This document shows, piece after piece, positions 1,079 to 40,442 of a DNA stretch of 43,865 nucleotides. Below the pieces are notes generated by a model, which was not told the DNA's origin, did not search any database, and was given only the letters and a program-made list of their open reading frames with translations. The DNA lies in sequence record MN384978.1; one strand, written 5' to 3'. Both the position numbers and the translations under genes were made by a program. The DNA comes from Escherichia phage vB_EcolP_P433.1. The first letter of the stretch is position 1. Every line of letters starts with the position of its first letter.

Positions 1079-1414
1079 TCACTCTTCTTCCTCTTCTTCG
1101 TCTTCATACCAAACCACATCACTGTCATTTGGTACATCATTATAAAGCGCCTCATAAATGCGAGCCTGTAGGATCTTGGTTACATCCTTGGTGTCAGGGA
1201 TCAAGCCGGCATCATCGAATTCAATATCAATCCCGTCGGCCGCCATCACAGTAAAGATTTCATGATAATAGTGCGGTACGTTGTCATCTACAACCTCATG
1301 CAGCGCATCAGAATAATCATCATCTTCACGGATATGATCATACTGAATGCGCTCGTTGAACGCTTCAACAGTTGCAGCCAAAAGGTTGTAGTAAGCGTTA
1401 GCATTGCGTTCCAT
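1079..1414 (-). CDS. ocr: Ocr-like DNA-mimic anti-restriction protein (T7 gene 0.3 homolog, 111 aa)
   Basis: Very acidic protein ending in a poly-Glu run; the segment [44 protein letters not shown] closely matches T7 Ocr as remembered ([45 protein letters not shown]); GAGGA RBS before the ATG at 1414. Confidence 0.8.
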   Translation of the reverse strand: [111 protein letters not shown]

Positions 1415-8570: not shown

Positions 8571-9300
8571 AATAAGTCCTTGAAATCCTTGCAGAAATGG
8601 TGTTTCGATTGGAAGACTTACTCCGGTAATTTTGCCCATACACTCGCCGCTGCATCGCCACAGAAGTGTTGGTTACTTTTCGCTCAGTCCCGTAATCTCC
8701 ATAGAGCATGGCCCTGCGGAGGTGAGGTGTGTTCATAGCTTGGATGTAATCGCGCATCTCTTGCGCTCTGAGGCGATTAATCCGTGTAACCTCATCATAG
8801 TCTATCTGAGAAGTTAATTGCCGTATAGCGCCGTACAGAGCGTCTAAGCGGTCATCGTGCCGGAGGCTGTTCTTCTCGATCGTGATGTTCGACATTTGAT
8901 TGAAAAGGCTATAGGACATGCGTAGCTCAAGCGGATAGTTCTGTACTGACTCAAAGTCAGACTTGACCATCTCAGCATTGAAGATGAGCCTGTGGGCCGC
9001 CATGAGTGGCTCCAGTGTCTCAATGATACGCAACTCTTTCTGTCCTGTGGCGTAATCCTCTTCCAGCGTTACAGGCCACTCTCGTTCAAAGTACGGCTTA
9101 ATTACGGCCTCAAACGCGCCATGACCGAAGTTTTTCTCTATGAATACCTCTTTAACACCCGCCTGCTTTGCGGACTGCACAATGCGATTCAGGGACGATT
9201 CGCGGTATCCACCCGGTACACCGAAGCACTGATACACGTAAATGAATGTGCCGTGCAGGAAGACAATCGCTACACCCGTTTCGTCCCCGTTCTTACCTCC
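8569..9300 (-). CDS. terL: terminase large subunit, exon 2 (nuclease domain, 243 aa)
   Basis: Frame begins GGKNGDETGVAIVFLHG, i.e. mid-way through the conserved nuclease motif, with no ATG or RBS of its own; in frame with exon 1 if the 9301-10046 insert is spliced out. Confidence 0.7.
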   Translation of the reverse strand, partial: GGKNGDETGVAIVFLHGTFIYVYQCFGVPGGYRESSLNRIVQSAKQAGVKEVFIEKNFGHGAFEAVIKPYFEREWPVTLEEDYATGQKELRIIETLEPLMAAHRLIFNAEMVKSDFESVQNYPLELRMSYSLFNQMSNITIEKNSLRHDDRLDALYGAIRQLTSQIDYDEVTRINRLRAQEMRDYIQAMNTPHLRRAMLYGDYGTERKVTNTSVAMQRRVYGQNYRSKSSNRNTISARISRTY

Positions 9301-23354: not shown

Positions 23355-23391
23355 AACAAAAAGAGCCCTACCTACGCAAGGTAGATAGGGC
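23355..23391 (-). terminator. hairpin plus U-tract terminator after the major capsid gene
   Basis: 11-bp stem (GCCCUAUCUAC / GUAGGUAGGGC, one G.U) with a 5-nt loop followed by UCUUUUUGUU on the transcript; same place as T7 T-phi. Confidence 0.6.
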
Positions 23392-24652: not shown

Positions 24653-24675
24653 CCCTTCTATAGTGTCCAGTAAAT
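24653..24675 (-). promoter_or_regulatory. phage RNAP promoter ATTTACTGGACACTATAGAAGGG (capsid promoter)
   Basis: Read as reverse complement; lies between the scaffold and capsid genes. Confidence 0.8.
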
Positions 24676-27860: not shown

Positions 27861-28012
27861 TCCATGATGTAACGCTTCACTTCATCAACGATTAACTCTT
27901 CATGAGTCTTAGTTACCTTTGGAGAAGATGGCTTGAGAATCATCTCAAGCATCTCCATCCCCTCAAATGAAATCGTCGGTTTCTTCTTCATCTGTACCAT
28001 AGAGTTCCTCAA
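27830..28012 (-). CDS. hypothetical protein (60 aa; start uncertain)
   Basis: ORF between the ligase-side small gene and the GNAT gene; no motif support. Confidence 0.3.
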   Translation of the reverse strand: MRNSMVQMKKKPTISFEGMEMLEMILKPSSPKVTKTHEELIVDEVKRYIMDCVRAQLVVQ

Positions 28013-28178
28013 CTTTTTCTTTGATGGCTTCTACAGAAAGACCTAGTTCTTCTGCATCAGCCAGTAAGTTATACGGCACTTCCATGCCACAGGATAAAGT
28101 TTCAAAGATAGCCTCTGCTACCTCAACTGCACGAGTTGCCTTCATGCTATCAAAAGAAATCTGGTTCATCTTTGTCAT
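27963..28178 (-). CDS. hypothetical small acidic protein (71 aa)
   Basis: ORF in the replication/accessory block with an acidic C-terminus. Confidence 0.35.
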   Translation of the reverse strand: MTKMNQISFDSMKATRAVEVAEAIFETLSCGMEVPYNLLADAEELGLSVEAIKEKVEELYGTDEEETDDFI

Positions 28179-29115
28179 GTCTTAATTCTCCCGCTTTGGG
28201 CAGACGAATGTTGCCCTTGCTTGAATCCTGAAGACCTTTGACTTCAAAGATTTTACCAATGACATTCAATCGCCCGCCATGTTTAATATCGTGGAACATC
28301 TGTTCTGCATCTGCATGAGTCCACCCTTTACCTAACATAGCTTTGATTGTCTTGCCTCCTTTCCATTTGAAAATGAGGTTAGCTACCTTACCTTTGTACT
28401 TACCTTTGCCCTCTTCAAAGCCAATACAAGTAAGGTCATAAGTTACCTTACGTACTTCTTTAGTCTGACGATAACCTTTATGGCCTGCTTCATAGTCGCA
28501 GTCTAGTTTAAACACAGCACCCTCTCGGCCTGCGTCTATTTGCTCTTGCGCAAACGCTTCAACTTCTCGCTCATTATGGCAAGGAGTAATAGGAAGGATA
28601 GCGTTGCACCCGCTAAGATGAGCGCCGATGCGACGATGTAAAGCATCGTAACGTTTGAGATAAGAAACATCAGTGAATCCATCATGGAATGCCTTAATAG
28701 TTAACATATCGAAGAAGTCGATATACAGGTTGTCTTTAATCTGCTGGCCTATGAAATCAAGTGGCTCTGTGCGATTAGGGTTTACCACTCCTGATAGAGC
28801 TTCAAGATAAATATCAACAGCCATAGATTGCAACTCACCAAGATACAGCCCGACAGGAAATACACTAAATGTCTTTTCCAAGGCTTCAACATTTGCGAGC
28901 TTCTTACCAGTACGACCAAAGATGGCAACAACACCATCACTACGGACCACAACAGCACTGAATATTCCATCACGTTTCACCTGTGCATAACATGGAAATG
29001 TAAGTTTCTTCTCAGGTACTTCACCGCGATGTTTCACCAGCATGAATGGGTGATTGCGGTGGTCTTCTGGAAGACCTAAGAACTCAAAGATATTCATATC
29101 AAATATCCTCATCAA
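28150..29115 (-). CDS. ATP-dependent DNA ligase (321 aa)
   Basis: Adenylation motif I KxDG present as VKRDGIF; size comparable to T7 gene 1.3 ligase. Confidence 0.8.
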   Translation of the reverse strand: MMRIFDMNIFEFLGLPEDHRNHPFMLVKHRGEVPEKKLTFPCYAQVKRDGIFSAVVVRSDGVVAIFGRTGKKLANVEALEKTFSVFPVGLYLGELQSMAVDIYLEALSGVVNPNRTEPLDFIGQQIKDNLYIDFFDMLTIKAFHDGFTDVSYLKRYDALHRRIGAHLSGCNAILPITPCHNEREVEAFAQEQIDAGREGAVFKLDCDYEAGHKGYRQTKEVRKVTYDLTCIGFEEGKGKYKGKVANLIFKWKGGKTIKAMLGKGWTHADAEQMFHDIKHGGRLNVIGKIFEVKGLQDSSKGNIRLPKAGELRHDKDEPDFF

Positions 29116-30536: not shown

Positions 30537-30915
30537 AAGCAAGGCGTGCCTTACGGTTCTTAGCCTCGCGCTTCTCTGCCTCCGTTTGATGTTTGTGATA
30601 TAACTTATCTGTCTGAGGCGTACTATGTAACTTCCAGTATTCATACAGTCGCTCTAACCATTGAAGCTGGAAGTAACGGTTATTACCCGCCTTACCATAA
30701 CCAGAGATAACACCCTTAATCTTTCCTTCTGCACCATTGCAGCCTCGGCATACAACAGCACGGCAGAATCCTGTCTCATGGTCATGGTCAAGTACACGGT
30801 TTACAGGAGTAACAGCCTTGAGACTACCACCGCAGAGTGGACACTTCCACCCTTGCTTTTCTAGTAACTCTTTCTTATAAGCTGCTACCTCCGATGCTTT
30901 CAATTTGCTAACCAT
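30505..30915 (-). CDS. endonuclease VII-type Holliday-junction resolvase (136 aa)
   Basis: CPLCGGSL...LDHDHETGFCRAVVCRGCNGAEGKIK matches the T4 endonuclease VII zinc and catalytic motif (LDHDHE...CNxCN..EG as remembered). Confidence 0.75.
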   Translation of the reverse strand: MVSKLKASEVAAYKKELLEKQGWKCPLCGGSLKAVTPVNRVLDHDHETGFCRAVVCRGCNGAEGKIKGVISGYGKAGNNRYFQLQWLERLYEYWKLHSTPQTDKLYHKHQTEAEKREAKNRKARLAYARKKEVKVG

Positions 30916-31937
30916 TCCGCATCATCTCCCCACAAGATTGGGTTCTTATCGGCTCGCCATATATCTCCTTTGAATCTTGCCATGTGAGCCAAGCGACCAC
31001 ACTCAAGCATCAGGTCAAAGGCTTTACCGATACGATAACCCCCTCGGTAGTTTCTAATCTTAACTTGTCCATGCCCGAACTTAGCCTTGTAAGCACCAAG
31101 CACTGCCATGTACAACTCTTTCTCTGTCTTACAACCTTTGAGAAGATCATAGGCATACTTAGCACCACGACCCGGTATGCCAGAGTAATTATCGATATCA
31201 TCGCCAATAATCATCTGTGCATAATGGAACATGAGGCCAGCACCTTTTAGGTCTTTGACTTGACCATTAGCCTTACGGCGTAACTCGAGCCAACCCATAG
31301 GTTCTACCCACTTCTTCTCTTGACCCGGCTGAAGATGCCAACCGGGAACAATCATTAAATCCTTATCTAAGGAAACGATGCAAGTGTCAGAGAATGCTTT
31401 ATGCTCTGGACTACCGATAGGGAACTCGTTACCTGTATCTTGCTGGAAGCGGCGGTGGCTGTCCCATTGTGCAATGCTCATGAGGTCATCAGCTTCCTCG
31501 CCATCTGCCAAGATTGCACCATGAACCTCTAAGAGGTGCTCTCGCAATTCATAGAAGAAGGGAGGCTTCTCGGTCTTACGTTGACCCTTATAAGGTTTGG
31601 TGAAGGCTAGGCGAACACGGAAGTTAGCTTCTGATTTCGTCATGAATAACTTAGCTGCATCACACTCTGCTGCATACACCCAAGAGTTGAGCAAGGAGTT
31701 CACACGGTCACATGCTTGCTTACACTCAGGTGTATCTTTGATTGATGGGACTTGTCCTGACTTAACACGAGTTGTAGCTCGTACATAAGTCATGTCACTG
31801 ATTGTATAACCTACGATGTAGGGTAGCATATCAGCATCTATTAAAGCGATTCTATTACCTTCAGTTGGCCACAGGATGAGATTATTGTCTTCCGATACTG
31901 TAGCTCCGAAGTTGAAGTTTGGTCGCATGTAGGCCAC
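30900..31937 (-). CDS. 5'-3' exonuclease, T7 gp6-like FEN family (345 aa)
   Basis: GDDIDNYSGIPG matches T7 gp6 GDITDGYSGIAG as remembered; acidic cluster IALIDADML near the N-terminus. Confidence 0.8.
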   Translation of the reverse strand: MAYMRPNFNFGATVSEDNNLILWPTEGNRIALIDADMLPYIVGYTISDMTYVRATTRVKSGQVPSIKDTPECKQACDRVNSLLNSWVYAAECDAAKLFMTKSEANFRVRLAFTKPYKGQRKTEKPPFFYELREHLLEVHGAILADGEEADDLMSIAQWDSHRRFQQDTGNEFPIGSPEHKAFSDTCIVSLDKDLMIVPGWHLQPGQEKKWVEPMGWLELRRKANGQVKDLKGAGLMFHYAQMIIGDDIDNYSGIPGRGAKYAYDLLKGCKTEKELYMAVLGAYKAKFGHGQVKIRNYRGGYRIGKAFDLMLECGRLAHMARFKGDIWRADKNPILWGDDAEWLAN

Positions 31938-32137
31938 TCCTTCAAGATGTGCTCTACAACAGACTGAGCCACCTGAAGTGGGCTGAGGTCATAGTGATCA
32001 TCTGTATCGTGCAAATAATCATACTTTAAGAAAACCTCATCATCTAGCCACACTATAACACGAGTTATATAATCTCTGTGTAAGGCACTAAATCGTCTAT
32101 CGTAGTCAGCGCGTAAACGAGATTCAATAGTCGGCAT
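31841..32137 (-). CDS. hypothetical protein (98 aa)
   Basis: ORF overlapping the 5' end of the exonuclease ORF; the real boundaries are uncertain. Confidence 0.35.
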   Translation of the reverse strand: MPTIESRLRADYDRRFSALHRDYITRVIVWLDDEVFLKYDYLHDTDDHYDLSPLQVAQSVVEHILKEWPTCDQTSTSELQYRKTIISSCGQLKVIESL

Positions 32138-32256
32138 AATTCATTCTCCAATAACTATTACGCAAAAGACCCTGCCTACACTAAGGCAGACAGGGCATTA
32201 GATGAGGTGAGCGTGATAGCCACAACTAGGACTAACAGAGGCAACACCTGCTATTA

Positions 32257-32625
32257 TCAAAATTCTTCTTCTTCGCTTACCGGTACTTCCTGTGCAGCTA
32301 CGTCTTCTACTGCTTCAGCTTCTTCGGCAGCCTTAACTTCTTTCACTGGTTTACCAGCAGCAACCCAGTCCAGATATTCAGCTACGATATTAGCCTTACC
32401 AATCTGAGCTTTGTCAGCCTGCTCAGGGAAGCAAGCACGAGCGAACTCCAGACCAGCAGCGAAGTTACCCATGCTGTCAATTTTAGCTTGAGCATCTTCA
32501 CGTGTATCATAAGCCTTAGTGCCAGCTACCAGTTTGTTGGCTTCATCGACGATAACGAAAGACTCAACGGATACCAGATCAGCACCTTTAACAACACGGT
32601 TTACGATAGTTTCAATCTTGAACAT
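32257..32625 (-). CDS. hypothetical protein with acidic C-terminal tail ending in Phe (122 aa)
   Basis: Downstream of the promoter at 32676-32698; C-terminus ...EVPVSEEEEF resembles the polymerase-binding tails of T7 gp2.5 and gp4. Confidence 0.5.
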   Translation of the reverse strand: MFKIETIVNRVVKGADLVSVESFVIVDEANKLVAGTKAYDTREDAQAKIDSMGNFAAGLEFARACFPEQADKAQIGKANIVAEYLDWVAAGKPVKEVKAAEEAEAVEDVAAQEVPVSEEEEF

Positions 32626-32675
32626 ATTAAATTCTCCTTTTGTTTGTTATGGCATTATCGCCGATTAAAATTCTT

Positions 32676-32698
32676 CTCTTCTATAGTGTCCAGTAAAT
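32676..32698 (-). promoter_or_regulatory. phage RNAP promoter ATTTACTGGACACTATAGAAGAG
   Basis: Read as reverse complement; preceded 16 bp upstream by the palindrome at 32714-32729. Confidence 0.75.
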
Positions 32699-32713
32699 AC
32701 CGGACACCGATTT

Positions 32714-32729
32714 GTCTCACACGTGAGAC
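32714..32729. repeat. inverted repeat GTCTCAC-AC-GTGAGAC
   Basis: Read directly; begins 1 nt after the stop of the 72-aa gene and ends 16 bp before the promoter. Confidence 0.6.
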
Positions 32730-32730
32730 T

Positions 32731-32949
32731 TTATAAAACTGTGTTCACCTGAGCAATGTCGTGCGCCGGAAGCGATACGCCGTGGCGTTTCCCCGTAGCC
32801 GGGTCACTGTAGTTCACCACGTGCTGTCCATCGCGCCAGATGTAGTGCAGGTCGGCGTATGTCTCCCCTTCAGAGAAGGAGTGGAAAGTGCCACCTCCGA
32901 GCGTTGTGATACCTTTCTTGCAGTGCAGGGTTACGATTTGTACTTTCAT
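32731..32949 (-). CDS. hypothetical protein (72 aa)
   Basis: ORF immediately after the SSB-like gene; no motif support. Confidence 0.4.
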   Translation of the reverse strand: MKVQIVTLHCKKGITTLGGGTFHSFSEGETYADLHYIWRDGQHVVNYSDPATGKRHGVSLPAHDIAQVNTVL

Positions 32950-32958
32950 CCTTTCTCC

Positions 32959-33765
32959 TTAATATTCCGCGTCCTCATCCATCTCCGGTGCAGGAGTATC
33001 TTCTGCTTCAGGTACTTCCTGTGGAACAGACTCACCAGTATCCAGAGATTTACGATTAGCTGGAGTAGCATCCTCGTCATCTTTCTTCTTGGCTTTCTTC
33101 CACTCTGGGTCTTCTTCACGAGCAGCTTTAATGATTGCTTCTACGTGAGAACCAGCAACAGACAGGTTCTTACCACGAGGTGTTTCATTAAGGAAGTATT
33201 GACGCACCAAGTTAGCTGGGATGTCATCAAGGATTTCTTTGGTCAGCTTGTCGAAGGTGATATGACCTGTCATAGACAGACCTTCTTCTTCAACCTGAGC
33301 AATGACAAGTTTCTTCAGCTTGTCTGGCATACCACCAAAACCTTTCCAGTTAACATACTTGAATGACCCATCGTCATTCTTATCACCGGAGCCAACCATA
33401 GTTGCAGTCAGGCATTCACCAATGAAGTCATCGAAGCCACCAAGCAATTCTTTAGGGTCAACTGCATTCAGGAACTTAGTCAAGGTTGCCTTGTCCCCAG
33501 ACTTCAGAGGCACAGCCATCCACTGTTCCATGCGAGAATCATCTTCATTCTTGTCATCGTCACCCATCAGGACAATCTTAACAAGAACAAAGTTTGCTGG
33601 CTTCTTAACTTCAGTGGTATTACCTTTCTTAAAGATATCTTGGAAGGAACCCACATGAATGATGCCAGAGATTACTGCTTCGTGATCACCAACTTCAGGG
33701 TTCTTAAATACTTTACCTTCAGATTTAGTAACCTGAGCACCAAAATCAAAATCACCACGTGCCAT
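32959..33765 (-). CDS. putative single-stranded DNA-binding protein (268 aa)
   Basis: Extremely acidic C-terminal tail ending in an aromatic residue (...PEMDEDAEY) like T7 gp2.5; assignment otherwise positional. Confidence 0.45.
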   Translation of the reverse strand: MARGDFDFGAQVTKSEGKVFKNPEVGDHEAVISGIIHVGSFQDIFKKGNTTEVKKPANFVLVKIVLMGDDDKNEDDSRMEQWMAVPLKSGDKATLTKFLNAVDPKELLGGFDDFIGECLTATMVGSGDKNDDGSFKYVNWKGFGGMPDKLKKLVIAQVEEEGLSMTGHITFDKLTKEILDDIPANLVRQYFLNETPRGKNLSVAGSHVEAIIKAAREEDPEWKKAKKKDDEDATPANRKSLDTGESVPQEVPEAEDTPAPEMDEDAEY

Positions 33766-33950
33766 TTATTTAGTCTCCTATTGTCAGTTAGCTTTGTACT
33801 GAGCACAAGCATGTACTCACTAGAAAGCCCGATATAGTATCGGGTTGTGCAAGATGCACAATAAGGTTCAACGCTTTACAATCATAGGACGTGCTTAGGC
33901 TTACGCTCACTGAGCACCTTGGATTTACTGTCTCTGACAAACCCACCCTA

Positions 33951-33973
33951 TTGTTCTATAGTGTCCAGTAATT
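33951..33973 (-). promoter_or_regulatory. phage RNAP promoter AATTACTGGACACTATAGAACAA
   Basis: Read as reverse complement; overlaps the 3' end of the 125-aa ORF, upstream of the SSB-like gene. Confidence 0.65.
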
Positions 33974-34349
33974 ATTTGATCAGATTGTCTAACTCAATTT
34001 CCAGCATAACAATCTCTTTCTTCAGACTGTCAGATGCAGCCTGATGTACAAGAGCAACGGAGGCCTTGTTCTCTTCGAAATCAGCTTTCAGGTTGTCACG
34101 CTCTTGCTGGTGACGTGCCAGCATCTCTTCCACCTCTTTGACTTGACGTGCATTCAGGTCATCACGAGATGCATAGTAGCGGTTATGGCAGTCAATCATT
34201 TGAGAACTACGATGTTCTTCTACATCTACTTGTTCTTCTTCAATTTTGTTGATACGCTCTTGAATTGCAAAGATGGCCTTCTGCTTAAACTTATTAGATA
34301 AGCCACGAAAGTATTGGGCTACGAATACCAGAGTAGTTACCATAGACAT
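33972..34349 (-). CDS. hypothetical protein with hydrophobic N-terminus and coiled-coil-like remainder (125 aa)
   Basis: First gene after the promoter at 34414-34436; MSMVTTLVFVAQYF hydrophobic start. Confidence 0.45.
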   Translation of the reverse strand: MSMVTTLVFVAQYFRGLSNKFKQKAIFAIQERINKIEEEQVDVEEHRSSQMIDCHNRYYASRDDLNARQVKEVEEMLARHQQERDNLKADFEENKASVALVHQAASDSLKKEIVMLEIELDNLIK

Positions 34350-34413
34350 ATTTATATCTCCTATATTTACTTAATTACCTATACTACCTTATAAACCTAG
34401 ATTACCTAGGCTT

Positions 34414-34436
34414 TCCTTCTATAGTGTCCAGTAAAT
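34414..34436 (-). promoter_or_regulatory. phage RNAP promoter ATTTACTGGACACTATAGAAGGA
   Basis: Read as reverse complement; about 70 nt downstream of the DNA polymerase stop. Confidence 0.75.
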
Positions 34437-34504
34437 CATGTTAGACAAAATAAGTGGGAATAAGTTATTCATAAAGGCCACCCGTAAGTGACCTTGAGTA
34501 TAAC

Positions 34505-37051
34505 TCAGTGTGTTTCTTTCCAGCTTGCACCTATCTTATACTCGCCTGCCATCGGGCAACGCATCTTCAGATACTGCCCTGCCCAAGTCATGGCGTCGGC
34601 AATGATATGCCCTGCACGGTGATAACGCCGCTGGCAATGAAGTACACCAGCAGTAGCATCAACACTAACGAGATTTGCAGCAGACCACATACGTCCCTCA
34701 GAATCCACATGAACACGTTTCTCCTCTGCATCGAACACTGCTTTCACAGCGGCCTTCTCTGTTTCAAAACCCTCTAAGGTGAAAGGCAGGTCGTAGTTAA
34801 GATACAAGACCTCTTCTTCAGGAACCTCCATCTGGATTTCATCATGCACGTTAGCTACACCACAAGGGTTTCCCATACTATCTAAGGCCACACCTTCCTT
34901 GCGCATAACTGCAAATGCCTTGACTAATGCGTATTTCATACACAAAGAACCTGTCATCTGGAGTAATACGTTAAGCATAGTGTGCTCTTTAAGTTCACCA
35001 CCAGACATACGGATGCGACCCCAATGCCCATCAGGTGCTTGTAGGTAGCCAAACTTGTTACCTTGTGCAATAACATTCTCGCGAAGACGTGCAAGGGATG
35101 GTAGTTCAATCTCAAATCTTGCCACAACTTCCTTCATTTCTTCCTCAGTAACACCACACACTGCTGCAAGGTTTGCTATACCAGAACCATAGAGGAAAGC
35201 ATATATAAATGTTTTCGCCATATCACGCTTAGGAAGCCCAGCCTTCATCTGGTTATGCGTATGTATATCACCATGCAGTACAATATCTTGGTATTCAGGG
35301 TCATTCATGAAGTGAGACAGCACACGTAGTTCAAGACCTGCACCATCACAACCTAGGATTAGCTTACCTTTACCTGCTATGAATAAATCACGTAAAGGAT
35401 ACAAGCCACGGGCAGGAATATTAACCACGTTACGATGACGCATACGGAACGTAGAAGTGCCAATACTAATAGCAACAGCTGGAACACGCCACTCTCCATC
35501 ATCCTTATCTGACGTAGGCCAGTGTCCATACCTTTCGTAGTATTGCTGCGCATTGACTCCTAGCTCCTTGTTAAATGCTACAGGTACAAGGCCACGACAC
35601 TTTCGTACACCAGCCTGCGAGGGCCACGTTCCTTTCTCGTTGAAGGCTTCAACGTCACCACGGTTGAGTATCTGACCACGACGGGATACGAGTATGTACC
35701 ATGCAGCGATACCCAAGCACCAATCAGGGACTGTTTTACCTTCACGTGCGGCTCTTTCTTGCCATAAAGTAAGGGACTTCTCATTTATCTTACCACTCCA
35801 AGGCTTAGGTAGGACACCATTTTCATCAAGGTATGCTTGCTCTGTGTCGTTGAACTCCACACCTTTCCATCCATAGTCATAGAGCACTTGCTTAACGGTG
35901 TCACGGTTTCCCAAGGGAATCTCTTCAAACGTAACGGGACTGTAAGCGCCAACCCACTTGATGCTTGGCGTGTCATTACGGTTTCCTCTAAGGTGAGGGA
36001 AATCTTTCTTGACAGAAGCACTCCAATCTCCAGACTTAGTTGTGACAGACCATACAGTCTTCCTATCTCCACGGCGCTCCGCATGTAGAAAGTGTGAGGG
36101 GTCGAGTACAGTTGGGATATTATTGTTTCTTCCATACTCATTTGCTTTTTGGCAGGTTTCATTCTTTTCTTCCGGTTTAAAAGGTTTAGACTTGATACGC
36201 ATAGGCATGTGCGGACGGAACGCTGCGACTGTCTCATCAATCTTAGCGTCCAGTTCTTCGCATCGCGCTAATGCCTTGTCGATATCCAGACGGAAGCCAC
36301 GCTCGGCCTGACGGCTCATCTCCAGCGCTACAATGGACTCCATGTGGAAGGCTGTCTCAATGCCTAGGCCAGTACGTTTATTCACGCCACGGCGTTTGTG
36401 CTCCGTCCATTCCCCATTAAATAGCCAGAGGAATAGGTCACGACCAATCGCCACGTCCTCACGTACGCGATGCACCATGTGGTCGGTCAGTTTAGACCAA
36501 TCTTCGTTCTCCGGCTTATAGCGGCCTATACGGATGCCGTGCGCCTCAATTGAGTGAGGGGCAACGTTACCCATACCTTTGGCATAAGCCTGAGGAGGGA
36601 GGCGTCTATCGGGGTTTAACAGGCGGCTCATGACCAGCGTATCCATGACGCGTACCGGACACAGGTCAGCACGGAGTCTGCCCTTGCCGCGCTTCTCGGT
36701 ATAGTTAAAGCCTTTCCAGATATCAGGGAATGCTTTCTCAAAGAGAAGCCCGTCATACCCTAGGAAGTTCTGTGACACGATAGCTTCACAGTGCTTCAGG
36801 AAGTTAACGCCGTCAACTAAGTCACCATCTTGATGCCCTTCCCACTCCTTCAGGCGTTCTCTTGCTTCAGGGTCACGCATCTCATATGGGTCAAAGAAGA
36901 GGAATTCCTCAGTGGTGAGCAAGTCCATGCAGCAAATGATGTGCACATCTTCGCGGTGTCCATATCGGATAGCATCAAGAAGACCCTTAGCCTCCGCATC
37001 CATTACTAGGATGCGGCCTTCTGCTTCCTTCTTCCAATCAATAATCTTCAT
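34505..37051 (-). CDS. DNA polymerase, family A with 3'-5' exonuclease domain (848 aa)
   Basis: Exo motif VMDAEAKGL; polymerase motif A GCDGAGLELRVL, motif B KTFIYAFLYGSG, motif C VHDEIQMEV, all close to the T7 gp5 equivalents. Confidence 0.9.
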   Translation of the reverse strand: MKIIDWKKEAEGRILVMDAEAKGLLDAIRYGHREDVHIICCMDLLTTEEFLFFDPYEMRDPEARERLKEWEGHQDGDLVDGVNFLKHCEAIVSQNFLGYDGLLFEKAFPDIWKGFNYTEKRGKGRLRADLCPVRVMDTLVMSRLLNPDRRLPPQAYAKGMGNVAPHSIEAHGIRIGRYKPENEDWSKLTDHMVHRVREDVAIGRDLFLWLFNGEWTEHKRRGVNKRTGLGIETAFHMESIVALEMSRQAERGFRLDIDKALARCEELDAKIDETVAAFRPHMPMRIKSKPFKPEEKNETCQKANEYGRNNNIPTVLDPSHFLHAERRGDRKTVWSVTTKSGDWSASVKKDFPHLRGNRNDTPSIKWVGAYSPVTFEEIPLGNRDTVKQVLYDYGWKGVEFNDTEQAYLDENGVLPKPWSGKINEKSLTLWQERAAREGKTVPDWCLGIAAWYILVSRRGQILNRGDVEAFNEKGTWPSQAGVRKCRGLVPVAFNKELGVNAQQYYERYGHWPTSDKDDGEWRVPAVAISIGTSTFRMRHRNVVNIPARGLYPLRDLFIAGKGKLILGCDGAGLELRVLSHFMNDPEYQDIVLHGDIHTHNQMKAGLPKRDMAKTFIYAFLYGSGIANLAAVCGVTEEEMKEVVARFEIELPSLARLRENVIAQGNKFGYLQAPDGHWGRIRMSGGELKEHTMLNVLLQMTGSLCMKYALVKAFAVMRKEGVALDSMGNPCGVANVHDEIQMEVPEEEVLYLNYDLPFTLEGFETEKAAVKAVFDAEEKRVHVDSEGRMWSAANLVSVDATAGVLHCQRRYHRAGHIIADAMTWAGQYLKMRCPMAGEYKIGASWKETH

Positions 37052-37190
37052 ACATTAACTCCGTTTCAATTTGGTAATCAGGGATTTCACGATTATCTCG
37101 CGGGTCAATGTAATGAAATTCTGTGTTAACTTCCCGCGATTCAATTTCATCACGTAGTTTAATGAGGTCTTGCATAGTAAATTTAGTCAT
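37038..37190 (-). CDS. possible small protein (48 aa, MTKFTMQDLIKLRDEIESREV...) overlapping the DNA polymerase start
   Basis: Not in the ORF track; ATG at 37190 preceded by GGAGGT RBS; overlaps the polymerase start by 14 nt. Confidence 0.35.
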   Translation of the reverse strand: MTKFTMQDLIKLRDEIESREVNTEFHYIDPRDNREIPDYQIETELMYEDY

Positions 37191-37221
37191 TTGATACCTC
37201 CAATCAATATGATGAAAGGCT

Positions 37222-37237
37222 GTCTCACGTGTGAGAC
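37222..37237. repeat. inverted repeat GTCTCAC-GT-GTGAGAC (18-bp perfect palindrome 37221-37238)
   Basis: Read directly; starts about 10 nt after the stop of the 68-aa gene, preceded by GTCAAGG and followed by GCCTTTCAT. Confidence 0.6.
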
Positions 37238-37247
37238 AACCCTTGAC

Positions 37248-37454
37248 TTATCGACTGCGTGTTACAGTTAATTTCTGGCCCATGTATTTACCTTGGTGTG
37301 GCTCCCAAGTTGCCTCCTTGATAACCTGTTCACGCGTCAGGCTATTCTTCTTTGCTTCAGCCATAGTTAACTGTGCAAACAGGAAGGCTTGGTTGGTAAT
37401 TTGCGCTTGCAGGTCTTCGTGACCATCAAACATCTTAAGGCTGTGTTTAGACAT
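37248..37454 (-). CDS. hypothetical protein (68 aa)
   Basis: ATG start at 37454 overlapping the end of the upstream ORF; no motif support. Confidence 0.4.
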   Translation of the reverse strand: MSKHSLKMFDGHEDLQAQITNQAFLFAQLTMAEAKKNSLTREQVIKEATWEPHQGKYMGQKLTVTRSR

Positions 37455-37701
37455 AAGAGATTGCTACCTCTACTTTACTACCTTCCCAATGACCGTGACC
37501 ACCATCATTGCTTAGTGTAGTGCCTACACCCCAGCCAATACCATTATCGTTCACATAAATAGTTCGACCTTCTTGATAAGATACAACAAAGACCATGCCT
37601 TTAGCGTTAAAACTTACAATACGCATACGGCCTTTAAATGTGCCACGACGTAACTGCTTCTGAGCACGCTTGATACAGCGTTTGATTGCACGTTGTTTCA
37701 T
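37447..37701 (-). CDS. hypothetical basic protein (84 aa)
   Basis: AAGGAG RBS before the ATG at 37701; Arg/Lys-rich N-terminus. Confidence 0.45.
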   Translation of the reverse strand: MKQRAIKRCIKRAQKQLRRGTFKGRMRIVSFNAKGMVFVVSYQEGRTIYVNDNGIGWGVGTTLSNDGGHGHWEGSKVEVAISYV

Positions 37702-37711
37702 GATTAACTCC

Positions 37712-38377
37712 TTAAATATTCACGTAGGTTTCTTCAGTAACGATAGGGCAATAGACTAGGTGAGCTTCATTGACAATGAAGCCAAGTAAACCCTGCTTCT
37801 TGATAATGTGATTAACTATAGCTGCAAAGTTCTTATTAGCTACATTACGAGGCGCACCCTGTTCTGTGATTGCATGGTCAATATCCATGATTCGCACAGG
37901 CACATTCGGATGCATCATAGCTTCGCCAATCTTCACCATAGCTTGCCCTGTGGATTTACCTAATGCACGAGTATTAAACTGTGTAACACCTAATGCAGTG
38001 CCACATAGCTTAATCATTTCACTTTGAGTCTTACCAGTGACTACATTGCGTCGCTCTTTCTTGAGTGTGGTGCGTGTACTACTCATAGGGTTATTGGAAG
38101 AGTTAAATACTTTCAACATCTGACTAGTGCAACGCGCACACACATGAGATTCGTTGACACTGTGTGTACAGGTGCATTGATGTGTTGGGTCTTCCACCTT
38201 CTCAAGGTATTTATGGACACAGGATTTAATGTAACCCTCTTCTACTTGGCTTTGTTGGTAACGAATATAGTATAAGTCCTTTGTTTTACTAATGACTACA
38301 CCTATCTCACGTTTGTGGTTGGAATATTTGTTTATGTTACGAACTTTGTCACCTACATTCAATACTAATTTATACAT
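37712..38377 (-). CDS. hypothetical protein with Cys/His zinc-ribbon-like motif (about 221 aa)
   Basis: HQCTCTHSVNESHVCARC cluster; start placed at ATG 38377 with GGAG RBS (track start is TTG). Confidence 0.5.
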   Translation of the reverse strand: MYKLVLNVGDKVRNINKYSNHKREIGVVISKTKDLYYIRYQQSQVEEGYIKSCVHKYLEKVEDPTHQCTCTHSVNESHVCARCTSQMLKVFNSSNNPMSSTRTTLKKERRNVVTGKTQSEMIKLCGTALGVTQFNTRALGKSTGQAMVKIGEAMMHPNVPVRIMDIDHAITEQGAPRNVANKNFAAIVNHIIKKQGLLGFIVNEAHLVYCPIVTEETYVNI

Positions 38378-38416
38378 AATCAATCTCCAGTTATTTAATG
38401 TACTTAATAAGAGCCT

Positions 38417-38432
38417 GTCTCACGTGTGAGAC
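38417..38432. repeat. inverted repeat GTCTCAC-GT-GTGAGAC with extended arms
   Basis: Read directly; about 20 nt after the primase-helicase stop; the transcript could form a stem of about 11 bp. Confidence 0.6.
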
Positions 38433-38453
38433 AAGCCCTGATAAATACACTAA

Positions 38454-40442
38454 TCAGAACTCACTTTCTTCATCGAAGCCGGTCTCTTCTATAGTGTCCG
38501 GTAAATCCGGTACTTCTTGTTGCCTTGCTTCCCCTGTATCAAATGACTTAGTACGGGCTTGTGGTTCCATTAAACGTCCGGTTTGAATGTCACCCTTAAG
38601 CATGACCTTGGTTCCAGTGTAGATACCTTGGTCGCGGTCTTTGACACATGAGATGTACGTGGTAGTCCTTTCATCAAGCGTTTCAGCTCTTGTATTACGC
38701 TCAATCCCCAAGGCGTAAGATGCCCAGAATCCGATAGCACCTGAGCCTCGGAAGTCAGAAAGGATAACTTCGCCACCTTCTTCGTGCTGGACTCGGTTTC
38801 CCGCAGGGCGAGTAAGGTGCGAGACAAGGAATATAGTAACTGGGTGTCTGTCTTTGATAGTACCAATCCGCTTGACGCATTCATCAAGTGCACCAACCTT
38901 CCCACCAAAAGCACGCTCATCTAATTTAATCCCCGTTAAGTTATCAATGATGATATTAGAAATACCCATAGCCTCAAACTCAAGGCAAGTCTGCTCTACC
39001 TTCTCCATTGAGTAGTCACCTTCTAGGTCAGCTACGAAGAGCTTCCCTGTATCAGCGACATAGTCAATGGCAGCATTAGCTTCTTCCTCAGTATAGTCGA
39101 ACACCTCGCGGTATCCATCTTCTTTCGGGTCGTTGGTTGGCGGTAGTTCAATACGCTTATCAATCCACTTGCCGATAAAAGCACGAGACACTTTGACCAT
39201 CGGGTCTTCTGTAGAAATAATGCCTACGGATTCACCGTGTTCTTCGATGAGGTGCTTAACCACTTCACGGAGGAACTCAGTCTTACCTACACCAGAGCCT
39301 GCGCCTACAATGATAAGCTGGTTCTTACGGATACCTAGCGTTACTTTGTTCAGCTTAGGCCAAGGCCATGACAGCCCTTGCTCTGGTCGTGCGGCCTTAA
39401 GTTTATCCCTTTGAGATGCAATAGATTTAATCTGGCTACCAAAGACTTCATCAGACGACTTGGCATTAAACCACGCATCTACAAATTCTTTAGCCTTGCC
39501 AGCCATCAATGCCTTATTGGCATCTTTGCACCCAGAAGGGTACTCAAGAATATAGGATTTGCCGGGAAAGAGGCGAGCCGCTTGTTGGTTCTGCTTCTGC
39601 CCTACTTCATCCCCATCGAAGCCCCAAATAATCTTCTTGAATTGGGCGATGTGTTCACGGTTCTGCACAATCTCTTCAAGGCAAGATTCACCCTTATTAA
39701 CAGACCATACGTGGTAGGGCTGGCCTTCCCACTTAGTGCCTTTGGCAGAATCAAGGAGCATCTGTTGTGCTGCTAGTGCATCAAGCTCTCCGCCTACAAT
39801 AAGCAAGCAATCCTTCCGTCTTCCCTTGTCTAACACGTGAGACAAAGTATTCATACCGAAAAGATCTTGCATACCAAAGAGCTTACCTAGGTGACCAAAC
39901 TTAAAGTCTTTAGGTAAGGTACGGCACTTAGCGCCTACTAGCTCACCTCTCTCGAAGCGTGGATAGTAATGCCGTGAGACTCTACCCTCTTCATCGTGTC
40001 CGACACGTACATCATACAATGCGCAAATGTCGCCGCGAATGTGTCGGGAAACAAGATTCTTACGCTTAAGCGTGAGGAACCATTCAACATCAAGTTTCCA
40101 CTCTGCTTCTTGGTCTGCCCTTTCTTGCTCATTCATGACCTCCCAACGGTCTTTCATACGCATACCACCAAGTGCGATGGCTCGCAGCTTAGGGTCGCTT
40201 ATCTTCCCTTCCCTCTCCATCTCTTTGAATTGAGAAGGTGTGTATTTTATGTTGCCAGTAATAGGCAACTCGGTGATCTCGATACCGCCGTCTGGCTTGT
40301 GGTAGTATGGCTTGCCATTATCATGGAAGTGACCACGGTTACAATAGCCAGCACCATCATCAAATATCATGAGATGGTTGCCGGATTTATCGTGTCCATT
40401 CTTCTGGCAAGCAGGGCACGGGATGTTATTAATAATAGCCAT
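38454..40442 (-). CDS. DNA primase-helicase, T7 gp4-like (662 aa)
   Basis: N-terminal zinc ribbon CPACQ...YCNRGHF; helicase Walker A GAGSGVGKTEF; acidic C-terminal tail ending in Phe (...TGFDEESEF) as in T7 gp4. Confidence 0.9.
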   Translation of the reverse strand: MAIINNIPCPACQKNGHDKSGNHLMIFDDGAGYCNRGHFHDNGKPYYHKPDGGIEITELPITGNIKYTPSQFKEMEREGKISDPKLRAIALGGMRMKDRWEVMNEQERADQEAEWKLDVEWFLTLKRKNLVSRHIRGDICALYDVRVGHDEEGRVSRHYYPRFERGELVGAKCRTLPKDFKFGHLGKLFGMQDLFGMNTLSHVLDKGRRKDCLLIVGGELDALAAQQMLLDSAKGTKWEGQPYHVWSVNKGESCLEEIVQNREHIAQFKKIIWGFDGDEVGQKQNQQAARLFPGKSYILEYPSGCKDANKALMAGKAKEFVDAWFNAKSSDEVFGSQIKSIASQRDKLKAARPEQGLSWPWPKLNKVTLGIRKNQLIIVGAGSGVGKTEFLREVVKHLIEEHGESVGIISTEDPMVKVSRAFIGKWIDKRIELPPTNDPKEDGYREVFDYTEEEANAAIDYVADTGKLFVADLEGDYSMEKVEQTCLEFEAMGISNIIIDNLTGIKLDERAFGGKVGALDECVKRIGTIKDRHPVTIFLVSHLTRPAGNRVQHEEGGEVILSDFRGSGAIGFWASYALGIERNTRAETLDERTTTYISCVKDRDQGIYTGTKVMLKGDIQTGRLMEPQARTKSFDTGEARQQEVPDLPDTIEETGFDEESEF
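38484..38506 (-). promoter_or_regulatory. phage RNAP promoter ATTTACCGGACACTATAGAAGAG inside the 3' end of the primase-helicase gene
   Basis: CCG sub-class at -12 to -10; lies within the last codons of the helicase ORF. Confidence 0.6.

Follow-up and report, generated by a model that had tools for sequence, protein, structure and literature searches.

Does a small orphan protein encoded in the replication module of an SP6-like phage carry the same C-terminal tail as the phage's own helicase and SSB-like protein, and if so, on what might that tail dock? The window, by which I mean the whole stretch of DNA that was analysed, comprises 43,865 nt of Escherichia phage vB_EcolP_P433.1 (MN384978.1), a Vectrevirus (K1-5/SP6-like) in the family Autographiviridae. 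A first-pass annotation had claimed that three replication-module proteins end in an acidic tail capped by an aromatic residue, and the open reading frames and their C-termini are as it described: the primase-helicase ends in ...ETGFDEESEF, a 268-aa protein in ...APEMDEDAEY and a 122-aa protein in ...EVPVSEEEEF. The relevant features are as follows.

38454-40442 (-): primase-helicase, 662 aa, with Toprim and DnaB_C domains (Pfam and PHROG matches)
38457-38477 (-): tail tip of the primase-helicase, F-D-E-E-S-E-F662
34505-37051 (-): family-A DNA polymerase, 848 aa (Pfam DNA_pol_A), a candidate tail acceptor by analogy with T7 gp5
32959-33765 (-): 268-aa OB-fold protein, probable phage SSB (phrog_862)
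32962-32982 (-): tail tip of the 268-aa protein, M-D-E-D-A-E-Y268
32257-32625 (-): gene of the 122-aa orphan protein (SP6 gp18/gp20, K1-5 gp18; phrog_4429)
32278-32355 (-): linker of the 122-aa protein, acidic and hypervariable (about residues 91-116)
32260-32277 (-): tail tip of the 122-aa protein, S117-E-E-E-E-F122, followed by the stop codon at 32257-32259

Among some 40-50 plausible genes, only these three encode a last stretch of 10 residues with at least five D/E, no K/R and a terminal aromatic. The same pattern occurs in 4 of 11,964 ten-residue windows of the proteome, three of the four being the C-termini in question, and the number of C-terminal matches expected by chance is 0.013 (P for three or more, about 4e-7).

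The annotation was also correct in recalling that gp4 and gp2.5 of phage T7 have acidic tails ending in Phe (...NDTDF and ...DEDGDF, respectively). According to the literature, these tails bind basic patches of the DNA polymerase gp5, as well as the helicase and gp6. The likeness to the tails described here is one of form, [DE]-x-[DE]-F-COOH (DTDF and DGDF in T7; ESEF, DAEY and EEEF here), and of carrier, given that two of the three proteins are again a primase-helicase and an SSB, in a phage of the same family. The two helicase tails further share an upstream aromatic residue (...TDWSNDTDF in T7; GFD...SEF here). There are also differences. Within the T7 region examined, no further protein has a tail like those of gp2.5 and gp4, and the 122-aa protein has no T7 homologue. 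With just two tails of this kind in T7, the 122-aa protein adds a carrier, as the annotation had proposed: a third protein with a real and conserved T7-type tail, putatively for docking.

The 268-aa protein is probably the phage SSB, although not one of the gp2.5 family, a classification that I rejected as similarity to gp2.5 is undetectable by sequence or profile (hhalign probability 0.1%). It also has no match to a Pfam or NCBIfam family above cut-off and no sequence match in the PDB; PrgE of plasmid pCF10 (PDB 8s4s), an atypical OB-fold SSB, is among the closest known systems. Its tail is disordered from about residue 228 (AF2 pLDDT below 50 for residues 228-254), and in the helicase the Pfam domain ends at residue 604 of 662. 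The presence of the same tail on the helicase and on a non-homologous SSB-like protein in the SP6/K1-5 lineage shows the tail to be an ancient, transferable module.

Conservation and variation of the tails

The relatives compared, taken from annotated phage records, are represented by 12 complete or near-complete genomes at 30-50% identity, drawn from two subfamilies, Molineuxvirinae and Colwellvirinae, and from unclassified phages; the helicase gene of one relative lies outside the stretch examined. The gene order helicase, polymerase, SSB-like protein, 122-aa protein, exonuclease is kept among them, and every orthologue of the three proteins recovered from 11 divergent phage genomes retains a motif of the type [DE]x[DE][FY].

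Each tail has its own variant of this motif. The helicases of all 11 relatives (11/11) end in [DE]x[DE/Q][FY], one of them with an extra residue, and most have P[FW]D upstream, so that the helicase tail falls into two parts, an aromatic plus Asp further upstream and the acidic-Phe element at the very end. The 29 aligned homologues of the 268-aa protein, which reach down to 34% identity, all end in [DE][YF] except for one that ends in VY and two with one extra residue, and the consensus Φ(L/M)-x-x-[DE]-x-E-[YF] is retained over the same range. The variant of the 122-aa family is simpler and lacks both the upstream aromatic of the helicase and the Leu/Met found at -7 of the SSB-like tail.

The annotation had named absence of the tail from homologues of the 122-aa protein as a finding that would speak against its proposal. 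For the most part the tail is present: [DE]x[DE]F is found in 12/12 genomes (with 1-2 residues beyond the Phe in 4/12), EEEF is the C-terminus of all 120 close homologues, and at the level of 50%-identity clusters 18 of the 24 distant representatives have an aromatic within their last three positions. One relative, however, belongs to a lineage whose 122-aa homologue has no tail, a loss that affects this protein only. The linker behaves quite differently from the tip, varying in length and sequence even between homologues at 85-95% identity and containing only two aromatics in the 416 linker residues of the representatives. A variable, nearly aromatic-free linker before a fixed tip is the signature of a short linear motif. 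Judged by sequence, then, the comparison supports the view that all three tails are T7-type, with [DE]x[DE]F-COOH ending a disordered linker, and under selection.

Within genomes, the helicase and SSB-like tails co-vary (p = 0.00025; 11 genomes). No significant co-variation of the 122-aa tail with either was found across 11 genomes; three Pseudomonas phages have 1-2 residues beyond the Phe in the SSB-like tail as well as in the 122-aa tail.

A second known system invites comparison. The tip of bacterial SSB, ...DDDIPF, acts as a hub to which over a dozen genome-maintenance proteins bind, their pockets reading both the carboxylate and the side chain of the Phe. The architecture is shared, namely an OB or otherwise folded core, a disordered linker and an acidic, Phe-ended tip, with one motif serving many clients. 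The phage tails differ in that no Ile-Pro precedes the Phe in 12/12 genomes and in that the motif sits on at least three proteins rather than on one hub. Mimicry of the bacterial tip by the 122-aa protein was rejected on the same count: 0/12 tails have Pro at -2, and E, D, S, T or A precedes the Phe.

Architecture and expression of the 122-aa protein

The core of the protein, which is folded, takes up about residues 1-90, and a disordered linker of Ala, Glu, Val and Pro then leads to the tip SEEEEF. The AF2 model gives residues 1-50 a pLDDT of about 88 and residues 91-119 one of less than 50. Conservation of the core across the family equals or exceeds that of the tail, K37, A45, K77, N79, A82, W87 and G91 being invariant. 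Homologues occur in 215 phage records, and the family is an orphan confined to this phage group. Therapeutic K1 and Klebsiella phages are among the more than 200 sequenced phages that encode the protein, which is annotated everywhere as hypothetical. No match was found in Pfam, NCBIfam or the PDB, its PHROG is of unknown function, and structure comparison of the core fold gave no informative match. For the N-terminal part, a DUF1508/UPF0339 (YegP-like) domain is a tentative candidate. Three large repeat proteins from the search with representatives (P0191, P0193 and P0196) proved to be spurious, repeat-inflated matches. In the literature searched, neither these tails nor the 122-aa protein are described for SP6-like phages, although an earlier remark in the SP6/K1-5 genome papers is possible.

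Several identities suggested themselves for the protein and were rejected. It is not a homologue of T7 gp5.5 or gp5.3, sequence similarity being absent, nor by homology a DNA mimic of the Ocr/gp5.9 type, as Pfam, PHROG and PDB gave no such match. The genuine Ocr of the window lies at 1079-1414 and is detected by Pfam (E = 2e-32); its poly-Glu tail was accordingly set aside as a further candidate tail.

Two expression signals flank the 122-aa gene.

32678-32698 (-): SP6-type phage RNA-polymerase promoter, ATTTACTGGACACTATAGAAG, immediately 5' of the gene
32163-32196 (-): terminator-like hairpin with an 11-bp stem, followed by CTTTTG, 60 nt past the stop codon

Promoter matches number six in the window against 0.01 expected, and the very same 21-mer precedes the major capsid gene (24655-24675). 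The hairpin (z = -3.3) has only one counterpart of its class within positions 1-40000, and this follows the capsid gene (23365-23391). Among relatives, a GC hairpin plus TT[AC]TTTTG follows the 122-aa homologue in 11/11 genomes and in L015. Codon usage also resembles that of the capsid gene: the 122-aa gene has the highest fraction of optimal codons of 31 genes and ranks first by capsid-derived CAI in 8/9 genomes. The gene's own promoter, its conserved terminator hairpin and its capsid-like codon usage are new here, and together they indicate that the protein is probably produced in very large amounts.

Candidate acceptors and alternative explanations

What might such an abundant, tailed protein do? 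The best explanation of the observations as a whole, to which I would give a probability of about 0.5, is that these are docking tails of the T7 type and that the 122-aa protein docks on the replication or repair machinery. The three C-termini would be conserved short linear docking motifs, in each of which a disordered acidic linker leads to [DE]-x-[DE]-Phe/Tyr with its carboxylate free. In the T7 precedent, electrostatic attraction through the tails holds the helicase and the SSB to basic patches of the polymerase and also to each other, and the helicase and OB-fold SSB-like protein of the present phage may carry the equivalents. The 122-aa protein would resemble a small SSB in build, its folded core joined through a flexible acidic linker to a tip, and the tip would dock on some part of the phage's DNA-replication or repair apparatus. 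Since it shares the conserved acidic, Phe/Tyr-capped tail with the helicase and the SSB-like protein, the 122-aa protein qualifies as a good candidate for a replisome-associated factor not described before. The likeliest acceptor would be whatever receives the helicase and SSB tails, that is, by analogy, the polymerase, and the second candidate would be the DNA-binding cleft of the SSB-like protein. The existence of a tail-less lineage suggests that the core has a function of its own, and the tail may serve to concentrate the core at the fork.

The T7 replisome is the textbook minimal replisome, in which tail-to-patch tethers explain polymerase loading, polymerase exchange and SSB displacement. 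Whether the same patches could receive the tails in SP6-like phages can be judged in part from the polymerase, which is 35% identical to T7 gp5 in the palm and fingers. The T7 patches that receive tails are mostly not conserved in the SP6/K1-5-like polymerase. The front basic patch (K587/K589/R590/R591) is absent from the family, K587 falling in a gap, R590 being replaced by F/Y and R591 by G, although the K589 position is basic in 6/10 polymerases. The TBD patch is only partly kept, and R278 is basic in 10/10 and K304 in 8/10. A conserved 'GRIR' basic cluster was rejected as an alternative patch, as it is not a lineage-specific surface but the general family-A 'GRRR' motif. The interpretation offered by the first-pass annotation thus stands in part, in that the tails exist, are under selection and are of the T7 type, while docking on the polymerase is an analogy only. 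That the tail has been kept though the patches known from T7 have not makes the acceptor site a testable question in a large group of phages. Identification of the partner of the 122-aa protein would give a minimal replisome one more component or bring to light a new strategy of regulation or host takeover.

If present in very large amounts, a free tail directed at the same site would be a competitor of the helicase and the SSB, which argues for a regulatory role or for a different partner. The first of the alternatives, which I consider rather unlikely, is that the 122-aa protein acts in abundance as a decoy or regulator, its free tail filling acceptor sites in trans, and is not a working subunit of the replisome. 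It could tune polymerase exchange, shield the cleft of the SSB-like protein until ssDNA is present, or time the switch from replication to repair or packaging. Expression signals comparable to or above those of the capsid and SSB-like genes would suit such a role, as would a tail that is monopartite, generic and without genome-specific co-variation. Moreover, the T7 gp2.5 tail is reported in the literature to interact with the polymerase, the helicase and gp6; with several partners come several acceptor sites, where a free tail could act as a competitor. The gp2.5 tail also reportedly competes with ssDNA for the DNA-binding cleft of gp2.5 itself. However, a folded core that is at least as conserved as the tail, and that persists in the tail-less lineage, indicates that the protein is more than a tail carrier.

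Turning from the phage's own machinery to the host, the 122-aa protein may instead be made in quantity as an acidic inhibitor of some host factor, which might be a protein that reads the C-terminus of host SSB, a nuclease (RecBCD, for instance) or a nucleoid protein, and this I regard as unlikely. The analogy is with T7 gp5.5, gp5.7 and gp5.9, small proteins encoded in the same genomic slot, whose targets are the host H-NS, sigma-S and RecBCD. The 122-aa gene occupies the syntenic position of T7 genes 5.3-5.9, between polymerase and exonuclease, and its product is strongly acidic in net charge, encoded with very high expression signals and an orphan restricted to a phage group. Nevertheless, it has no homology to gp5.5 or gp5.3 and no Pfam match to Ocr-type mimics, even though the real Ocr was recognised, and the T7 proteins of this slot, to which it has no sequence similarity, lack an acidic linker and a capped tail. 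Its own tail, without a penultimate Pro in any of the 12 genomes, matches those of the phage's own helicase and SSB. Furthermore, the motif keeps to the phage pattern although the hosts are as varied as Escherichia, Vibrio, Pseudomonas, Marinomonas and Shewanella.

Finally, it is very improbable that the tail is a partnerless, generic acidic extension that enhances solubility or repels DNA and resembles the other tails by incidental convergence, for although some members of the family are tail-less and co-variation with the other tails went undetected, a purely electrostatic tail would not need an aromatic cap, and here the Phe stays terminal or nearly so at 27-50% identity (and EEEF without exception in the 120 close homologues) while the linker, essentially devoid of aromatics, is free to vary.

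Other possible tail carriers

A broader and decidedly tentative extension of the docking explanation is that SP6-like phages organise replication and repair by a shared C-terminal 'acid-aromatic' code, whose carriers compete for one or a few acceptor sites. Besides the helicase, the SSB-like protein and the 122-aa protein, the carriers could possibly include the ligase (...D[FY]), the exonuclease (...[DE]xW...) and a small protein encoded after the ligase. Under such a code, the 122-aa protein could be a highly expressed, trans-acting client, either a processivity or exchange factor that replaces the host thioredoxin used by T7 or a master competitor that sets the occupancy of the hub. SP6-like phages are not known to have a sliding clamp.

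A 50-aa ORF before the polymerase (...ELMYEDY, 37038-37190) was dropped as a fourth tail for lack of conservation: the position is occupied by a different protein, of 72 aa, in CrRp3 and by no protein in distant relatives. Two other features are listed below.

28150-29115 (-): ATP-dependent DNA ligase (Pfam ligase and OB_2), whose C-terminus consists of motif VI (RHDK) and DEPDFF; a possible further tail carrier
27963-28178 (-): 71-aa ORF after the ligase, with the acidic tail ...DEEETDDFI

The ligase ends in D[FY]-COOH in 10/11 relatives, an end that T7 ligase does not have, and a small acidic-tailed ORF after the ligase recurs in relatives.

Three acidic C-termini capped by an aromatic residue

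Re-reading the ORFs confirmed, exactly as the first-pass annotation gave them, three proteins with acidic, aromatic-capped C-termini:

38454-40442 (-), primase-helicase, C-terminus …FDEESEF
32959-33765 (-), 268-aa SSB-like protein, C-terminus …MDEDAEY
32257-32625 (-), 122-aa protein, C-terminus …SEEEEF

With a tail defined as a last ten residues that include five or more acidic ones, lack any basic one and finish with an aromatic, just these three proteins qualify among the ~40-50 plausible genes of the window. When all of the phage proteome was sampled, the pattern appeared in 4 of 11,964 ten-residue windows, three of them these termini, against 0.013 expected C-terminal matches (P(>=3) ~4e-7). 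The T7 tails named at first pass are likewise present in the T7 record (gp2.5 …DEDGDF, gp4 …NDTDF, and no other protein in the T7 region examined with such a tail), and published work confirms their binding to T7 DNA polymerase, whose basic patches they touch. The helicase is reported as another interaction partner of the gp2.5 tail, which is also required for gp2.5 to stimulate gp6 exonuclease (data not shown in the source paper).

At 43.9 kb the window amounts to essentially the whole genome of a podovirus of the K1-5/SP6 type (Vectrevirus, Molineuxvirinae, Autographiviridae), with its genes on the minus strand. Many Escherichia K1 phages match the stretch 32000-34000 at ~95% identity. Annotated relatives, CrRp3 among them, share its gene order (RNA polymerase, primase-helicase, DNA polymerase, small genes, exonuclease, endonuclease VII, phosphoesterase, ligase, structural genes). 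The order helicase, polymerase, SSB-like gene, (small genes), 122-aa homologue, exonuclease is retained in 11 divergent genomes from phages of Erwinia, Vibrio, Pseudomonas, Aeromonas, Marinomonas, Klebsiella and Shewanella, which span Molineuxvirinae, Colwellvirinae and unclassified relatives. All orthologues of the three proteins recovered there end in [DE]x[DE/Q][FY], a few with one or two trailing residues, and an unbiased scan of 339 ORFs from relatives' loci returned 34 acidic-aromatic termini, 26 of which belong to these three orthogroups. Homologues of the 268-aa protein end in [DE][YF] down to 34% identity (the exceptions are one VY and two with one additional residue).

By tblastn, 215 phage records (42-48 kb) carry a member of the 122-aa family. 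EEEF closes all 120 close homologues, among which the preceding ~25-residue Ala/Glu/Val/Pro linker differs in length and sequence. Searching 1.8 billion cluster representatives exhaustively with a profile yielded ~25 credible relatives (27-75% identity). The first-pass annotation had named absence of the tail from homologues as evidence against its idea: an aromatic lies within the last three positions in 18 of 24 aligned relatives, but a metagenomic relative (L015, Logan SRR25395025) encodes a clear homologue (E = 5e-29) that is tail-less, ending …EEERKAKLAA, while its helicase, SSB and ligase retain their tails. In one lineage at least, then, the core functions with no tail attached.

Two side observations concern these loci. 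In Klebsiella phage RCIP0089 (4215-6477 and 7729-10975), the annotation splits both the primase-helicase and the DNA polymerase into two ORFs apiece, near an HNH/HmuI-type endonuclease gene. Mobile elements have likely interrupted both genes; …DTDGEF still closes the helicase piece. L015 has a ThyX gene between polymerase and SSB-like gene, and its 355-nt gap from the SSB-like gene to the tail-less homologue (8751-9104) holds a tRNA-like sequence.

Identity of the carriers and expression of the 122-aa gene

The helicase is a T7-gp4-like fusion of Toprim and DnaB_C. For the 268-aa protein I found no sequence relative of known function, no sequence match in the PDB and an hhalign probability of 0.1% against T7 gp2.5, so that 'probable SSB' is a reasonable inference rather than a demonstration. 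Its N-terminus (residues 1-20; 33700-33765 (-)) carries a conserved M-A-R-x-F-D-F-G-A-(E/D)-V, with F6, G9 and A10 invariant to 34% identity; because this stretch is disordered in the AF2 model, the protein may have a second linear motif here. The 122-aa protein falls in orphan family phrog_4429, with no Pfam or NCBIfam match. In its model (pLDDT 66) the N-terminal beta-hairpin and helix are confident, the helices that follow as far as ~residue 90 are less so, and the tail is disordered. Both proteins are annotated as hypothetical in all records, and the literature searched, which did not extend to the first reports of the SP6 and K1-5 genomes, describes these tails in no SP6-like phage. The helicase and SSB tails add to a kind already known; the third, abundant carrier is a novel variation on it.

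The 122-aa gene forms a transcription unit of its own, with a strong Shine-Dalgarno sequence ahead of its start codon:

32678-32698 (-), SP6-type promoter, 21 nt, before the 122-aa gene
24655-24675 (-), promoter of the major capsid gene, the identical 21 nt
32163-32196 (-), terminator-like hairpin, 11-bp stem then CTTTTG, 60 nt past the 122-aa stop codon
23365-23391 (-), second hairpin of that class, near-identical, directly after the capsid gene

These are the only two hairpins of the 11-bp-stem class within positions 1-40000 (GCCCT[GA]TCT[GA]CC…GG[CT]AGGG[TC] plus (T)CTTTT(T)G), and only the 122-aa and major capsid genes are flanked by both the same promoter and a near-identical hairpin. A GC-rich hairpin with TT[AC]TTTTG follows the homologue's stop codon by at most ~50 nt in 11 of 11 relatives and in the metagenomic one. 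Such a terminator inside the DNA-metabolism cluster would attenuate the downstream exonuclease, endonuclease, ligase and other genes. The fraction of E. coli-preferred codons is highest, among 31 genes, in the 122-aa gene (0.76; capsid 0.69, SSB-like 0.62). Ranked with weights from each phage's own capsid gene, the homologue is first of 22-38 genes in eight of nine genomes and third in the remaining one, with the SSB-like gene usually 2-3 (5-9 in three genomes). Its own promoter and terminator, together with this codon usage, make the 122-aa protein very probably one of the most abundant phage products.

Separately, 33828-33844 (-) and 34416-34436 (-) mark a 7-bp hairpin just upstream of the SSB-like gene (CCCGATA…TATCGGG) and a further phage promoter copy downstream of the polymerase gene; the hairpin may serve to process or stabilise the highly expressed SSB-like transcript.

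Proposed acceptor and role of the 122-aa tail

The three tails have the T7 form, and the helicase shares an upstream aromatic with gp4 (T7 …TDWSNDTDF, this phage …GFDEESEF; most relatives have P[FW]D). The acceptor residues of T7 polymerase are mostly not kept. The front basic patch falls within a T7-specific insertion absent here (K587 gap, R590 to F/Y, R591 to G), and the thioredoxin-binding-domain patch retains only R278 (10/10) and K304 (8/10). Helicase and SSB-like tips are more alike within than across genomes (p = 0.00025 by permutation, a crude test on 11 partly related genomes), a resemblance of sequence that fits a shared acceptor; the same test gave no such signal for the 122-aa tip (p ~0.2). 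The sub-motifs differ: bipartite in the helicase, Leu/Met at position -7 in the SSB-like protein, plain acidic plus Phe in the 122-aa protein.

The best-supported reading is that the 122-aa tail is a true docking motif bringing an abundant small domain, which would function independently, to the phage replication/repair machinery. By analogy with T7 the acceptor would be the polymerase, as first proposed; the cleft of the SSB-like protein, or some other protein of the module, is about as plausible. Its high abundance points to a role that is stoichiometric or competitive. That the protein is itself an abundant tail decoy or regulator I consider unlikely. Slightly less probable again is that it acts in host takeover, from the position that genes 5.5 to 5.9 occupy in T7. 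The linkers of the aligned relatives contain 2 aromatics among 416 residues, and a generic acidic extension is a very improbable account of the tail. In host SSB, Ile-Pro precedes the terminal Phe; mimicry of bacterial SSB is disfavoured because this Ile-Pro is missing from all 122-aa-family tails examined.

Other acidic ends

Two candidates were set aside. The 111-aa product of 1079-1414 (-), …YEDEEEEEE, owes its very acidic end to being an Ocr DNA mimic (Pfam PF08684, E = 2e-32). The 50-aa ORF at 37038-37190 (-), …ELMYEDY, which overlaps the polymerase start, is not conserved; its slot in CrRp3 holds an unrelated 72-aa protein, …AIYEIY.

DNA ligase (28150-29115 (-)) ends in motif VI (R-H-D-K) and then a short x-E-x-D-[FY], here DEPDFF, found in 10 of 11 relatives and also in L015 and lacking in T7 ligase. 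This ending might make the ligase one more client of the docking system, or might be no more than a piece of the OB-domain fold. The 71-aa ORF right after it (27963-28178 (-)) ends …DEEETDDFI, and acidic tails, many of them with a near-terminal aromatic, likewise close the small ORFs at the same position in Era103, VEN, uligo, BUCT553, CB5A and BD1. Finally, the exonuclease (30900-31937 (-), here …GDDAEWLAN) has acidic-x-Trp 1-8 residues from its C-terminus in 11 of 12 genomes; T7 gp6 ends …LWRP.
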